39,851 nucleotides of DNA from a virus (Duplodnaviria > Heunggongvirae > Uroviricota > Caudoviricetes): positions 1-39,851 of the IMG/VR virus record IMGVR_UViG_2574180019_000010. One strand, given 5' to 3'. The translations under genes were made by a program, and so were the position numbers. Within the stretch, counting starts at the first letter, position 1, and each line of letters opens with the position of its first letter. Positions 2,818 to 25,460 of the stretch are shown one piece after another. The notes beneath the pieces were generated by a model. That model did not search any database. It saw only the letters and a program-made list of their open reading frames with translations, and had not been told where the DNA came from.

Positions 2818-3572
2818 CAGTTAGGCGCTCCTGTGTTACCGCCGCCGGTCTGTACTCCGCCGTGCGTGTGCGTCATCAGGCTCTTACCACCAGCTTTTAC
2901 ATCGTTAGTCACCGTGACAGGGCCAAGCATCGTCGCGGTGCCGCCGCTTTCGCCCATCCCCTGAGAAAGATTCCCGTTTATTGTCACGTTGCCGTTTAGC
3001 GTGATGGTGGGTGATGTGATCGTGGTTCCTCCTTCTGCTGTCGCCGTCAGCGCGCCGGGGGTTTGAACCGTGATGTTATGGCCTGCGGCCACTTCCACAA
3101 ACGCAGCGCCATCATCAGTACGCAGTTGCGCGGCGCTGGTGCTGATTCCGCTGATTTTCTGCGCCTGCGACTGGGGACCTACAATACAAAACGCATCCGA
3201 TAAATCATGCATTCTGTCATCAACAGGCTCCTGTATTCCGCCGTTCTGCCACCAGAAATCAATACAACGATCGGCAAAAATCACCAAACATTCATCACCG
3301 GCTTTAACTGGAAACGTTAGCGTACAGCCTCCGCCACGCGGGAATACCACTGGCACATCCACCAGCAATGGGTAATTTTTGGTAATGCGGTTGCCGTCGT
3401 TATCAATTTCAACGTAACGGATAGCAGGCTGTACAACCGCCGTCACCGCATCAGGAGCGAATGACTGAACAATGCCAGGCAAGGCGACACGGATCTGGTT
3501 CTTTGTTGTTTCCCGTTCAGATTTAAATGTTTCGGCAAGGTCGCCGCTGCGGGTCTGGTCAGATACTGCCAT
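2817..3572 (-). CDS. Baseplate spike, gpV-like
   Basis: 251 aa; Gly-rich C-terminus with HTHGG motif as in spike apex; GGAG SD upstream. Confidence 0.6.
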   Translation of the reverse strand: MAVSDQTRSGDLAETFKSERETTKNQIRVALPGIVQSFAPDAVTAVVQPAIRYVEIDNDGNRITKNYPLLVDVPVVFPRGGGCTLTFPVKAGDECLVIFADRCIDFWWQNGGIQEPVDDRMHDLSDAFCIVGPQSQAQKISGISTSAAQLRTDDGAAFVEVAAGHNITVQTPGALTATAEGGTTITSPTITLNGNVTINGNLSQGMGESGGTATMLGPVTVTNDVKAGGKSLMTHTHGGVQTGGGNTGAPN

Positions 3573-3589
3573 TTAGTAGGCTCCAGAAA

Positions 3590-3620
3590 GCAAAAAACCC
3601 GCCAAGTGGCGGGTTTGAAT
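3590..3620 (-). terminator. Rho-independent terminator ending the inserted two-gene cassette
   Basis: Stem AAACCCGCC / GGCGGGTTT (3595-3603 and 3608-3616), 4-nt loop, T-run on the minus strand, 20 nt after the 3637 stop. Confidence 0.65.
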
Positions 3621-3636
3621 TTTGAGAAATTTCAGC

Positions 3637-4065
3637 TTATGCAGTTAACGAGTCATCACCAATCTTCAGTAATTGATTAACGATTGCATCGACCTCTTCC
3701 GCATCCAGAATTACACTTCTCGCGGTAATCCGGTTGATTTTCCGCTCAAGCTTGTAATCAGAATTAACACGTTGGGCATGCGTCATTTTCAGTTTAACGC
3801 CGATTTTCTTTACTGCGTTAACATCAACATCGTTAAGTGCAGCTGCCTCACCACTACAAAAGGCCGTATAGACTCGCATGTGAACTCCACCTTTTAGTTT
3901 TTCACCATCTTGTGTAGCGGTCGGTACCAGATTGTTGGTGATCCGTAAGGCGGAATGGTACATACCATAGTATGCTCGGCTAATAGCATTTCTCGTCCAC
4001 ATCTCACCGTTTAGAGCCAGGGAATGCTTAGCCAATTCAAGAAAACAGGTATGCTCAACCGACAT
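3637..4065 (-). CDS. Cassette gene 2: 142-aa protein of unknown function, possible HEPN-like fold
   Basis: TAATG stop/start overlap with the upstream gene; segment RNAISRAYYGMYHSALRI resembles a HEPN helix (Rx6H); GC about 40% against about 55% in flanking tail genes. Confidence 0.45.
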   Translation of the reverse strand: MSVEHTCFLELAKHSLALNGEMWTRNAISRAYYGMYHSALRITNNLVPTATQDGEKLKGGVHMRVYTAFCSGEAAALNDVDVNAVKKIGVKLKMTHAQRVNSDYKLERKINRITARSVILDAEEVDAIVNQLLKIGDDSLTA

Positions 4066-4796
4066 TAGAGTTCCCCGGCTTCAAAGCATCCGACGCATTC
4101 TGAATCCGCAAGCCCCGCAATAATAATCTCATCAGCCAAGGCATTATTCATCTGCGAAAGAAGCACTGGATCGTCTGTTTTGACTTCAACGAACAGCGTA
4201 TCAAGTTCTGACATTACATAAAAAGCATGAGCGCCAGCAAGACGAGCGCGGTACTTTTCTGCAACGTTCATCATGAGCCGCCCAATAGTTTTTAGCTCCT
4301 GAGCATGATCTTTTTGGGTATGCAGATAATTGAGCGTGTCATACCATTTGCCCATATCTTCAGGGCGCGGTACTTCCATTGCAGTTAGCATCGGCATCAC
4401 CTTTTCAAGCAAATCGATATCAACCCAGTATGCAGAAATTGTAGCAACCTCAGCCAATATCGTTGGATTAAGTGAATCAGATGCTTTCTGAATCATCACA
4501 TACTGGCGAGCATGCAAACCTAAGTTACGCAGCGCAATCGTATAGTTACAAAAAGAAACTGGATCGTTAGGCGCTATTCTCAACCCCCGCTCACAGAGTG
4601 AACATCCTTCATCTATTTCACCAAGAACAAGCTTAGCTAAGCCTTCAATTGATAGCCCCTGATAACGTTCAGGTAGTTTCTTCGCTTCACGAATGATTCG
4701 ATGGATTTCAAACTCACTCAGAAGGTTTTCACCCTTAGTTAATGAAGGAGTCAGAAGATCTAACAGTTCTCCTGATTTTGGCTGCGCTAAACTCAT
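4065..4796 (-). CDS. Cassette gene 1: 243-aa predicted alpha-helical protein of unknown function
   Basis: ORF with ATG start; lower GC than flanks; coupled to the 142-aa gene. Confidence 0.4.
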   Translation of the reverse strand: MSLAQPKSGELLDLLTPSLTKGENLLSEFEIHRIIREAKKLPERYQGLSIEGLAKLVLGEIDEGCSLCERGLRIAPNDPVSFCNYTIALRNLGLHARQYVMIQKASDSLNPTILAEVATISAYWVDIDLLEKVMPMLTAMEVPRPEDMGKWYDTLNYLHTQKDHAQELKTIGRLMMNVAEKYRARLAGAHAFYVMSELDTLFVEVKTDDPVLLSQMNNALADEIIIAGLADSECVGCFEAGEL

Positions 4797-21713: not shown

Positions 21714-22055
21714 TTACTCCTTATGGGCACCGAACTTGTTACCGATGACCCTCATTGCCGCACCACGAATAGCATCAACACCAATCAGCCCCACCCCACC
21801 ACCAATGGCAACAGAAAGTGATTTAGGCCATCCGACATACTCAAGCGCGGATGCAAAGGTCAGCGTCAGAGCACCACAAAGCAGAATCTCAAGCGTTTTT
21901 CGTTTCCAGCCGCCGCCACCGCCAAAATAGGCAATGCGCAAACCAGCCATAATAATTGACATAACCACTGCGCCCAGCGGCGTATCTCCACGCCACCAAC
22001 TTTGTAAGAGTTCCAGTAAGTCAGGCCAGGAATGAGGGGCATTGTGCATTTTCAT
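21714..22055 (-). CDS. Holin with dual-start motif (antiholin/holin)
   Basis: M-K-M start (ATG 22055 and 22049) with SD GGAGGTGA; multiple TM segments; directly upstream of the endolysin. Confidence 0.6.
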   Translation of the reverse strand: MKMHNAPHSWPDLLELLQSWWRGDTPLGAVVMSIIMAGLRIAYFGGGGGWKRKTLEILLCGALTLTFASALEYVGWPKSLSVAIGGGVGLIGVDAIRGAAMRVIGNKFGAHKE

Positions 22056-22272
22056 AAGCCTCACCTCCGAGAGTTCGGATGGTGCTAAGTGTAAGATTCA
22101 GGCTCTCAGTCTTGCTAACAAGAAGTCGAGGATGTTTCCGGAGCCTAACAACGAAAAAGCCCCGGGACATGCCGGGGCCAGATGGAGTGCCAGATTAAGC
22201 TTCTGGCGGTATATACTCGTGTTTGATATCGTTAAATCGCCAAAAGTAACAATTCAAACAAAGAGGATTTTT

Positions 22273-22434
22273 ATGTCTGAAAAAAACAAGCCACAAGGTG
22301 AAAATAAACCTCAGCAACCCGTGGCACCAAAACCAACTCCAACACAAAGTACTGCAGACTTTGCTACACGTCGTGTTTTTGTTGGAGATTCTGCCGACTC
22401 AGTCATTGAACATATAAAAAAACAGCCGAGATAA
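22273..22434 (+). CDS. Small 53-aa protein convergent with the membrane moron gene
   Basis: ATG 22273 with SD AAGAGGA; 3' end overlaps the 22403-22972 gene by 32 nt. Confidence 0.35.
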   Translation: MSEKNKPQGENKPQQPVAPKPTPTQSTADFATRRVFVGDSADSVIEHIKKQPR

Positions 22435-22972
22435 ACATCGCCGCTACCGGAGCAAGGATGGTATACATCCTTGCTTTATCGAGACTCGTGCGGATTTTCT
22501 CATTTTCCAACAGTAACTCTCTTGCTGTATCACTCAAGTCAACAAGGCGATACCTTCGTATAAGCGGCAATAACTTATCAGGTCCTAAATATCCTGCATC
22601 AGCGAATATTTTAAAGCTCGAGGGCTCCATATCCTTATATTTTTCATGATATAGATGATCAGGAGGGGCATTGATCAGGCCCCTAACCTTCACAGATAAA
22701 CCAGTACATACCAAGTAAATGGCGCACCATGTCCATAGTAATGTAAATGTGGTAATTCCGGCGGTGAGAAAATCGAAATTAGTTTTCTGTGTCAGCAATA
22801 AAAAAGATGAGCCAATTCCAACAATCTGAATGTTCAGAAGTTTGTATCCATTCTCAACATTGGTTTTGTTAGAAAGATGAATCTCTCGTATCGTCTCTTC
22901 CCCTTGTTTTTCAAGATAATCGACGAGCTCATCATCTACTCCTAAAAAATAAACTTTAGGTAGTTCTCTCAT
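22403..22972 (-). CDS. Membrane protein moron, three predicted TM segments, unknown function
   Basis: ATG 22972 preceded by GGAGG; GC about 33%; between the Q-region terminator and the holin. Confidence 0.5.
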   Translation of the reverse strand: MRELPKVYFLGVDDELVDYLEKQGEETIREIHLSNKTNVENGYKLLNIQIVGIGSSFLLLTQKTNFDFLTAGITTFTLLWTWCAIYLVCTGLSVKVRGLINAPPDHLYHEKYKDMEPSSFKIFADAGYLGPDKLLPLIRRYRLVDLSDTARELLLENEKIRTSLDKARMYTILAPVAAMFISAVFLYVQ

Positions 22973-23080
22973 CTCACCTCCACATCCTGTACTGAACACA
23001 ATTTTACCAGAATGTCTCGATTCTAGGTATTCCGCCAGGAATCGCGCTTCAGAAATGAAACATCAGGTTCGCCAGTACCA

Positions 23081-23110
23081 GAAACAACAAAACCCGCTCA
23101 ATGGCGGGTT
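23081..23110 (-). terminator. Rho-independent terminator downstream of Q, tR'-like
   Basis: Stem AACCCGC / GCGGGTT (23091-23097 and 23104-23110), loop TCAATG, then TTGTTGTTT on the minus strand. Confidence 0.55.
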
Positions 23111-23193
23111 CTGGTAAAGTTCATGCGCTTGGTTCGCCTCGCGATACAGCTTTGCGAAGCGTACTGGGATTGAAGCAGTTTATGCGTAAAAAA

Positions 23194-23736
23194 TCAAGCC
23201 GTTTTTTGAGCGAATGATTCTCGCATGGGAATGTATAGCGCATACTCAGCAACGGCCAACCAATTAGCAATTCGCTTTTCGCATGTGCTAAAACACCACT
23301 CTGGGTGTGCATCATTTAGCAATTCAGCCATTTTGCGTTTGGTCATCCCCCGCCCCTCATACCGTTGCCGAAGGACGCTAATCAATCCTGGATGCTCTGC
23401 CAGCACCTCACTTATGACCCGATCAATACATAACGCCTCTGCATCAGTACAATGCGCCAGCCAGCTCTTTTGCTTACCGTTAATCATATCCCGCAAAAAA
23501 GCCTCAAGTTCAGACTTGTTCAGACCTGCTTTTTTCATCCTGCGGAGCGCCTCGTTAATTTCCGTTTTTGTCAGCTTTTTAGAGGTCAACAACTGGTTGA
23601 ACATATTCCCCGTCTTACCGCCACCAATATACGACCAGCGCCCCCACATACGCAGTTTTCCCTGAATCCAGACACTTTCCAGCGTGGTGAGACGAAGGTG
23701 TTCTCCGCTTTTTCCTGTATTCGTTGGGTAAATCAT
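23194..23736 (-). CDS. Late antiterminator, Q-like
   Basis: 180 aa from ATG 23736 with SD AAGGAAGG, ATGA overlap with the upstream gene; classic Q position. Confidence 0.45.
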   Translation of the reverse strand: MIYPTNTGKSGEHLRLTTLESVWIQGKLRMWGRWSYIGGGKTGNMFNQLLTSKKLTKTEINEALRRMKKAGLNKSELEAFLRDMINGKQKSWLAHCTDAEALCIDRVISEVLAEHPGLISVLRQRYEGRGMTKRKMAELLNDAHPEWCFSTCEKRIANWLAVAEYALYIPMRESFAQKTA

Positions 23737-24693: not shown

Positions 24694-24945
24694 CTAACAG
24701 GATGCTCTGACTCGCAATTCATCCAGCAGTTTATCATTTCCCATAATGTCACTTACCCTCATCGGTAAAAAAATTGCCTTTCGACCATTACGATACATCA
24801 TTGATTTTGGGGTTTCAGGGAAGTAATCCATTTCGACTATAACTGACAGGTCATCACGACGTATGACTGCGTATTTGCAACTAAATAGTTTCTTTATTTT
24901 TTCCACGATGCCTCCGAGTTTATAAGTACAAACGGTTATATCCAC
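24694..24945 (-). CDS. Hypothetical AT-rich orphan ORF
   Basis: GTG start without SD; AT-rich; weak coding call. Confidence 0.25.
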   Translation of the reverse strand: MDITVCTYKLGGIVEKIKKLFSCKYAVIRRDDLSVIVEMDYFPETPKSMMYRNGRKAIFLPMRVSDIMGNDKLLDELRVRASC

Positions 24946-25004
24946 ATAGAGACAAAAATATTAATCTGAAAAATATTTATTTCACGCCGTATATTTGATT
25001 ATTT

Positions 25005-25080
25005 AATGTGCAGGTACAATGACTTTTATTTTTTGTTGTGTATATAATCAAATATATGGTTATTTTTCACCCTGCACATT
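25005..25080. repeat. Perfect 10-bp inverted repeat AATGTGCAGG / CCTGCACATT flanking a 56-bp AT-rich spacer
   Basis: 25005-25014 and 25071-25080; between the hok terminator and the orphan ORF. Confidence 0.5.
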
Positions 25081-25087
25081 CAGCGCG

Positions 25088-25113
25088 CAACAAAAAACCC
25101 GCCGAAGCGGGTT
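25088..25113 (-). terminator. Rho-independent terminator of the hok transcript
   Basis: Stem AACCCGC / GCGGGTT with loop CGAA, followed by a T-run on the minus strand. Confidence 0.65.
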
Positions 25114-25181
25114 AAGTGCGGGTGCGTTGAGGATGCCTGACACATCAGAGGCGGCGGGGGATTTCTCCCTCGCCAAGTCTC

Positions 25182-25337
25182 TTACTCCTCAGGTTCGTAG
25201 ACTGTGAAGACAGCGACCTCCGTCTGGCCGGTTCGGATTCGTACCTCGCAGAGGTCTTTCCTCGTTACCAGTGCCGTCACTATGACGGTTAAACAGATGA
25301 CGATCAGGGCGATTAACATCGCCTTTTGCTGCTTCAT
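25182..25337 (-). CDS. hokD: Hok-family type I toxin, HokD/RelF-like
   Basis: 51 aa MKQQKAMLIALIVICLTVIVTALVTRKDLCEVRIRTGQTEVAVFTVYEPEE; SD AAGGAG upstream; in-frame upstream extension from ATG 25394 is mok-like. Confidence 0.7.
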   Translation of the reverse strand: MKQQKAMLIALIVICLTVIVTALVTRKDLCEVRIRTGQTEVAVFTVYEPEE

Positions 25338-25350
25338 AGCCTGCTTCTCC

Positions 25351-25460
25351 TTGCCTTTCGGCACGTAAGAGGCTAACCTAGATTTGCCGTTCATAGATTG
25401 AGCCTCAGATTAATGTTAAGCGTCTTGCAGGACGCGTAATGTTAACTGGGGCTTTTCTCT
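25351..25460 (+). ncRNA. Candidate Sok-like antisense RNA with promoter
   Basis: -35 TTGCCT (25351-25356), 17-bp spacer, -10 TAACCT (25374-25379); predicted transcript is antisense to the hok leader; no clean terminator found. Confidence 0.3.

Follow-up and report, generated by a model that had tools for sequence, protein, structure and literature searches.

A two-gene accessory cassette between Q and the holin of an E. coli prophage: a three-helix membrane protein and its convergent small partner

Why should a lambdoid prophage carry, between its late antiterminator and its holin, a gene for a membrane protein and, converging on it from the opposite strand, a gene of some 50 codons? The question arises from a 39,851-nt stretch of virus DNA, hereafter the window, in which an initial annotation had picked out a 189-aa ORF on the minus strand and a 53-aa ORF on the plus strand, overlapping by 32 nt at their 3′ ends between Q and the holin gene; we verified both ORFs, their overlap and their coordinates. 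The pair is an autonomous two-gene accessory cassette, or moron, located for the most part between the holin and Q/tR′ of lambdoid prophages. As to what the cassette does, we tentatively favor, at somewhat less than an even chance, a membrane effector that a small regulatory protein, reinforced by antisense transcription, keeps inactive and that acts in abortive infection or exclusion.

Layout and boundaries of the cassette

The late region of this E. coli prophage occupies the minus strand and reads Q, a terminator, the 189-aa ORF, a second terminator, a lambda-type holin and an endolysin. Q (23739-23194, minus strand) is a late antiterminator of the DUF1133 type (Pfam DUF1133, 1.7e-106; Phage_antitermQ, 5.9e-6; PHROG 753) and is the upstream neighbor, outside the module; the lambda-family holin S (22055-21714, minus strand; PF05106, 1.9e-27) is the downstream neighbor, likewise outside it. 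Between them, the gene for the 189-aa inner-membrane protein (PHROG 11870) runs on the minus strand from an ATG at 22972 to a stop at 22403, with a GGAGG Shine-Dalgarno (SD) sequence 8 nt upstream, and the gene for its hydrophilic 53-aa partner (PHROG 14506) runs on the plus strand from 22273 to 22434, with AGAGGA 6 nt upstream. By these coordinates, the two coding regions overlap tail to tail at 22403-22434. The small gene, on the plus strand against a minus-strand late region, is indeed antisense to late transcription, as had been proposed. The GC content of the large ORF had been put at about 33%; we compute 39.1%, a higher value yet one well below the window mean of 49.2%, and the whole cassette stands at 41%.

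A terminator scan places an intrinsic, tR′-like terminator just downstream of Q (23113-23088, minus strand), which forms the upstream boundary of the module; an equivalent GC hairpin with a T-run is kept in most related loci. After this terminator, on the large-gene side, a consensus CATTCAGGTAAAAT is kept in most of 32 diverged loci, and the window has a predicted extended -10 element for the 189-aa gene, TGgTAAAAT (23001-23009, minus strand), about 29 nt before the ATG. The downstream boundary is a second intrinsic terminator from the same scan (22179-22158, minus strand), and its position is kept across loci. Because it lies beyond the whole small gene, large-gene mRNA would be antisense to the small gene in its entirety. 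For the small-gene transcript, the scan found no intrinsic terminator, and this transcript should therefore run into the large gene. Antisense coupling of the two genes, which the initial annotation had read from their overlap, would follow from this geometry only.

Upstream of the small gene lies a nearly invariant 27-nt block, TGATATCGTTAAATCGCCAAAAGTAAC (22224-22250, plus strand), which in the aligned diverged loci appears as the strikingly conserved CTGATATCGTTAAATCGCCAAAAGTAAC. With its invariant TG.TAT..GT, the block is predicted to hold an extended -10 element (TGaTATCGT) and the start of a leader. A generic sigma-70 promoter scan reported no promoter for either gene, and so both promoters stand as predictions only. 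Farther out, an inverted repeat, GCCAGA-N7-TCTGGC (22189-22207), has its center about 41 nt before the point where the small-gene transcript would start, and may be a regulator site or a hairpin; a hairpin is found there in many loci, not all, and favors neither strand, the mean folding energies being -9.1 versus -9.8 kcal/mol. Within the repeat, TCTGGCGGT equals 9 nt of the lambda OR1 operator; the element, though, is common to phages that presumably differ in immunity type. A search of Rfam over 21900-23400 gave no credible family. At two distant loci, the promoter region of the small gene has a canonical TATAAT flanked by direct repeats, GTAACCACAACTTATAA twice in L017 (4700-4790) and CCCCAACAGAG twice in L021 (3060-3130), which suggests that an operator controls expression from this promoter.

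Late-strand terminators stand on both sides of the cassette, in the layout of a moron. The features by which morons, in Hendrix and Juhala's sense of the term, are recognized are found in it: terminators and a promoter of its own (the promoters being predicted), a base composition that differs from its surroundings, and presence or absence among otherwise similar phages. The proposal that the Q-to-lysis interval is a cargo site has thus held up, given its lower GC, the two late-strand terminators, a promoter-like element for each gene, and the fact that, of 1169 E. coli genomes with matches to parts of the region, 223 have the whole module.

Other elements were observed near the module. About 1.5 kb upstream of Q, the same prophage has a Hok/Gef-family type I toxin gene (25182-25394, minus strand), and adjoining it is an AT-rich stretch (24700-25150, GC 36%) that holds an 83-aa ORF (24694-24945). 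There is no tRNA gene in the window. In Citrobacter-type and Achromobacter phages, tRNA genes flank the module (L004, 4820-5127, Met, Phe, Thr and Gly; L104, 4663-4736, Gly; L082, 2827-2912, Ser), which may be compared with the tRNAs beside stx in Stx phages.

The membrane protein and its protein-coding partner

The 189-aa protein is a three-helix membrane protein of a phage-restricted family. The three transmembrane (TM) segments that had been predicted for it are borne out as hydrophobic stretches at about 45-61, 69-93 and 169-188, and its AlphaFold model (pLDDT 83.5) is all-helical, with long helices at 14-62, 68-92 and 134-188 and some short ones; an acidic N-terminal helix and a third, C-terminal TM helix are among its features. 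From the way charge is distributed, the N-terminus and the region 95-168 appear to be cytoplasmic. Homologues are spread across Enterobacterales in more than 100 clusters at 42-99% identity, nearly all of 189 aa with the same start Met, and for this reason a longer, 198-aa reading from a GTG at 22999 is unsupported. An exhaustive search with the family profile returned about 100 representatives at 50% clustering, every one of 160-200 aa. The family is confined to phage and prophage contexts, with only two plasmid hits.

Is the 53-aa ORF a gene at all? We gathered 101 loci, 98 of which have an intact large gene, and in 96 of those 98 the same position is taken by a homologous small ORF (47-64 aa) that is convergent and intact; the two exceptions come down to an N or a homopolymer length change. 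Outside its overlap with the large gene, the small ORF has a median Nei-Gojobori dN/dS of 0.27-0.28, and in 179 of 179 usable pairs the value is under 1. Four control frames over the same region give 1.0-1.7, and the antisense frame that has third codon positions in common gives 0.45, a known artefact. Indels are all in frame, and the start codon, SD and stop are conserved. The frame-specificity of dN/dS rules out a chance antisense ORF. On this comparative evidence, the 53-aa gene is protein-coding, and the small ORF of the initial annotation is confirmed as a real gene and an obligate partner.

The same data bear on a reading in which the 53-aa ORF is untranslated and antisense RNA alone acts, in the manner of type I systems. 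In txpA/RatA, bsrG/SR4 and fst/RNAII, all type I toxin-antitoxin pairs, toxin and antagonist are transcribed toward each other, with the antagonist RNA reaching into the 3′ end of the toxin gene, and the window has just this layout. But an omega of 0.28 in frame against at least 1.0 elsewhere (the artefact frame aside), together with the in-frame indels, the conserved start, SD and stop, and a peptide motif that is kept even where the partner has fallen to 25-30% identity, makes an RNA-only antagonist extremely unlikely.

The 44 distinct small proteins have a Pro/Gln/Lys-rich N-terminal half that starts MS(E/Q)xNKP, a core of DF(S/A)xxR.(V/I)GDSA and then a basic tail, and the small protein is mostly disordered by prediction (pLDDT 63). 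In variants P0111 and P0113, a Pro-Thr repeat in the disordered N-terminal half is expanded in frame, from PTPT to PTPTPTPT. PGAP annotates two hypothetical proteins for the cassette in E. coli genomes and has the small gene begin with a GTG at 22219, for a product of 71 aa; the comparative data favor the ATG at 22273. The PGAP extension (22219-22272) is the conserved promoter/leader block and not protein, which accounts for an apparent "protein" conservation (..DIVKSPEVTT..) in some loci. From deposited phage records the small gene is missing altogether, so that, between miscalls and omissions, it is often mis-annotated or overlooked.

Judged from the alignments, the 53-aa gene is always paired convergently with the large gene and co-diverges with it. 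Pairwise identities of the large and small proteins are correlated (Pearson r = 0.85, 55 distinct pairs), and a convergent small gene of about 40-53 aa, hydrophilic and Pro/Lys/Gln-rich, is kept beside relatives of the large protein at 20-30% identity. Both genes occur in 136 of 168 loci; one locus, truncated at its end, has the small gene alone, and in two others all that is left of the large gene is a remnant. The overlap measures 20-35 nt in Enterobacterales; it is 30 nt long in L017 and reaches 50-65 nt in betaproteobacterial loci; in L021 the two genes abut with no overlap.

Disruption falls on one side of the pair. Several lineages have a large gene that is truncated or frameshifted (L014, where the small gene is intact, L015, L016, and clusters P0035 and P0084), and no credible case of the reverse, an intact large gene beside a broken small one, was found among the loci. 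This asymmetry could reflect target size alone, 570 nt versus 160 nt. L014 comes from Leclercia adecarboxylata NCTC13032 (4001-4702), and its small gene is 94% identical to that of the window; the truncated variants P0035 and P0084 recur in E. coli, E. marmotae and Citrobacter.

Spread of the pair and the portable 27-nt block

The cassette is present at about 99% identity in 223 of 5426 complete E. coli genomes (about 4%) and occurs also in prophages of Citrobacter, Klebsiella, Salmonella, Serratia, Yersinia, Morganella, Proteus and Pantoea. In Enterobacterales the Q-to-holin site predominates: a holin or lysozyme gene lies within 2.5 kb in at least 63 of 96 loci, with differing families of antiterminator and holin. 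Distant versions, in Pasteurellaceae-like and betaproteobacterial (Burkholderia, Achromobacter) phages, occupy non-lysis positions. L017 is beside cI/Cro/Bro-N, L021 is in an early region, Burkholderia L102 is inside the tail genes, and Achromobacter L104 and L106 are before the terminase. Since these distant members keep the pair elsewhere, pairing is independent of the Q-to-holin site.

This distribution weighs on the possibility that the pair is a lysis-timing accessory, made late from PR′ with the holin and tuning its triggering or the energization of the membrane, with the antisense gene preventing premature expression. The co-orientation of the large gene with the late genes in Q-to-S loci would suit such a role too, and, in those 63 or more of 96 Enterobacterales loci, the pair directly adjoins Q/tR′ on one side and the holin on the other, in late-gene orientation, the holins differing in class (lambda S, holin_2 types). 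However, the pair is missing from most related prophages that have the same Q and holin (223 versus 1169 genomes), unrelated cargo substitutes for it at the site, terminators insulate it on both sides, it has an apparent promoter of its own, and neither member matches a holin or antiholin family in Pfam or PHROG. The initial annotation had asked whether the membrane protein might prove to be a conserved lysis accessory protein; the paired distant members beside cI/Cro and in early, tail and pre-terminase regions speak against this, and we consider a lysis role quite unlikely.

What stands at the site in place of the pair is informative. E. coli RM8082 (L002) has an identical flank from the holin to the ATG, but there the ATG opens a 92-aa gene, and the alternative cargo (3214-4457) consists of this gene converging on a 76-aa gene and a gene with an ORF6N domain. 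From this identity of flank with different cargo, the site appears to be a cargo-exchange hotspot with a promoter/leader directed against late transcription. The exact 27-mer TGATATCGTTAAATCGCCARAAGTAAC is found in 59 IMG/VR contigs; the block is seen in L002 (3165-3213) and in L108-L165, and about 22 nt past it come an SD and an ATG that head at least five unrelated first genes. Among them is the small gene of the present cassette; the others code for a product of 92 aa, a zinc-ribbon protein of 67 aa and products of about 148 and about 165 aa; none of the block-headed cargo genes has a Pfam family. In E. coli, the block region is present in 254 of the 5426 genomes, versus 223 for the whole module. 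Viewed across these sequences, the 27-nt block looks like a portable promoter/leader that marks a hotspot of cassette exchange antisense to the late operon. As a common sequence handle, it may be used to find more cargo cassettes at this hotspot.

A candidate membrane effector and its relation to known systems

Homology searches offer one lead to function. The 189-aa protein had no hit at E ≤ 1 in Pfam or PADLOC; for the two window proteins together, Pfam, NCBIfam and PADLOC gave no match, and their PHROG families are of "unknown function" only. A sequence search of the PDB with the family profile gave nothing below E = 0.1, and Foldseek against the PDB and BFVD likewise gave no hit below E = 0.1, its matches being to generic long-helix (BAR-like) structures and helical bundles. 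The family profile does find P0146, over its full length (E = 8e-22), and P0146 in turn matches the PADLOC PycTM model (1.5e-8) and the CBASS "Effector 2TM" model (PDLC00700, 4e-5), each over full model length; against the current Pfam PycTM model its match (E = 0.016) is below the gathering threshold. The PycTM profiles compared were PF18967 of Pfam and PDLC02363 and PDLC02364 of PADLOC. Two other sequences, P0130 and P0143, have weak 2TM, PycTM and SLATT_3 matches, those of P0130 being to PDLC00668 (0.004) and SLATT_3 (0.13 in Pfam, 0.3 in NCBIfam). The link to abortive-infection effectors is transitive, and would run through the single bridging sequence P0146, in a comparison between families of TM helices, where composition can inflate scores. 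PycTM is described as an abortive-infection effector that forms a membrane-spanning pore (PMC11224242). We found no cyclase gene within 3-4 kb of the pair, whether in the window or in those related loci whose neighbors are annotated, nor beside the most distant members (P0186, P0173, P0254, P0221 and P0190), and no CD-NTase (SMODS), SLOG or other sensor gene adjoins any locus examined.

We propose a model in which the large protein would be inserted N-in, with both of its soluble helical parts in the cytoplasm, would oligomerize via its Gly/Ser-rich first helix (IVGIGSSF), and would permeabilize or depolarize the inner membrane in the manner of PycTM, CBASS-2TM and SLATT effectors. The small, basic and largely disordered protein would bind the acidic cytoplasmic part of the large protein and so keep it inactive, as an antitoxin-like or a labile, sensor-like partner. 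Convergent transcription would add antagonism at the level of RNA, with large-gene mRNA extending through the whole small gene to 22158 and small-gene mRNA, lacking an intrinsic terminator, entering the large gene from its 3′ end. Lysogens would keep the effector silent, with transcription from the small gene's own promoter dominating. When an infecting phage stops host expression, or when Q-modified polymerase sweeps in from PR′, the balance would tip toward the effector. The outcome may be abortive infection or exclusion of competitors or, for the carrier phage itself, a harmless burst at lysis.

A milder function is conceivable, in which the membrane protein blocks the entry of an incoming genome without killing the cell and the small protein modulates or limits its level. 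HK97 gp15, P22 SieA and T4 Imm are blockers of genome entry at the inner membrane, and the gp15 moron is located among tail genes. The cassette, too, is a moron with its own promoter-like element and an inner-membrane product, L102 lies inside a tail-gene cluster much as gp15 does, and several members adjoin repressor genes, as the lysogen-expressed rex and sieB do. Yet we found no likeness in sequence or fold to known Sie proteins, with no match in Pfam, which includes SieB. Moreover, simple exclusion proteins have no need of a strictly conserved, co-evolving cytoplasmic partner with antisense overlap, and the only remote homology signals are to pore-forming effectors. Non-lethal superinfection exclusion is, in our estimation, fairly unlikely.

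It could also be argued that the pair serves prophage addiction pure and simple, as a toxin-antitoxin with no anti-phage role, or confers some other trait of lysogenic conversion, for example in stress or membrane physiology. The toxin-like and antidote-like features that enter the effector reading would serve here equally, and the Hok/Gef gene shows that such modules accumulate in this prophage. The cassette-swapping hotspot and the phage-only distribution, with its two plasmid hits, nevertheless fit conflict between phages better, and we hold addiction or a conversion trait to be improbable.

The regulated membrane effector thus remains the reading that we favor. A more specific version of it, to which we give a lower chance, clearly short of even, is that the cassette represents an undescribed type of defense or exclusion system, with a cyclase-independent effector, a distant relation of PycTM and SLATT, gated by a co-evolving disordered microprotein and by convergent antisense transcription instead of a nucleotide signal, at a hotspot marked by the portable 27-nt block, through which phages would exchange lysogen-expressed cassettes antisense to the late operon. 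Neither protein belongs to an annotated family or a catalogued defense system, although some 4% of complete E. coli genomes carry the cassette. Should the large protein be a membrane effector, killers of the PycTM/SLATT kind would be controllable by a 50-aa protein plus antisense transcription, with no nucleotide second messenger involved, and a small two-gene candidate would be added to the repertoire of defense and exclusion.

Like PycTM, CBASS 2TM and SLATT effectors, the members of the family are small (about 160-190 aa), helical, membrane-inserted proteins, and membrane permeabilization is presumed for the 189-aa family by analogy. PycTM effectors are encoded beside the pyrimidine cyclase PycC and respond to cCMP or cUMP by disrupting the membrane, and CBASS 2TM and SLATT effectors go with CD-NTase (SMODS) or SLOG genes. 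The members of the present family differ in their company and in their build. In place of a nucleotide synthase, the partner here is a disordered protein of about 50 aa, encoded convergently; there is no adjacent cyclase or CD-NTase, and the window protein itself has no match to the models. The present family is also phage-only, and has the third, C-terminal TM helix and the acidic N-terminal helix. With type I toxin-antitoxin systems, the cassette has in common a product that is membrane-active by analogy, a convergent antagonist overlapping the 3′ end, and a prophage location. However, its large product has 189 aa where type I toxins are peptides of less than 60 aa, and its antagonist transcript encodes a protein under purifying selection. 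Type II systems are co-transcribed as bicistronic operons, with an antitoxin protein that neutralizes the toxin protein, whereas the genes here are convergent.

As an accessory element, the cassette resembles the lambdoid morons (lambda rexAB, lom and bor, P22 sieB, HK97 gp15) in its promoter and terminator, low GC, presence/absence polymorphism and membrane product, and some distant members lie, like rex, next to cI or, like gp15, amid tail genes. It has no sequence similarity to these, and only here is there an obligate convergent small partner. Prophage defense with built-in self-immunity has been described for Tai/Ati of phi80 and for BstA/aba (PMC11364771, PMC8585504). In those systems as in our model, one element is expressed in the lysogen and the other is tied to the lytic program, so that position relative to Q-dependent transcription matters. 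The proteins are unrelated, however, and Tai, which acts on tail assembly, is no membrane protein, whereas the late-oriented gene of the present cassette encodes a large membrane protein.
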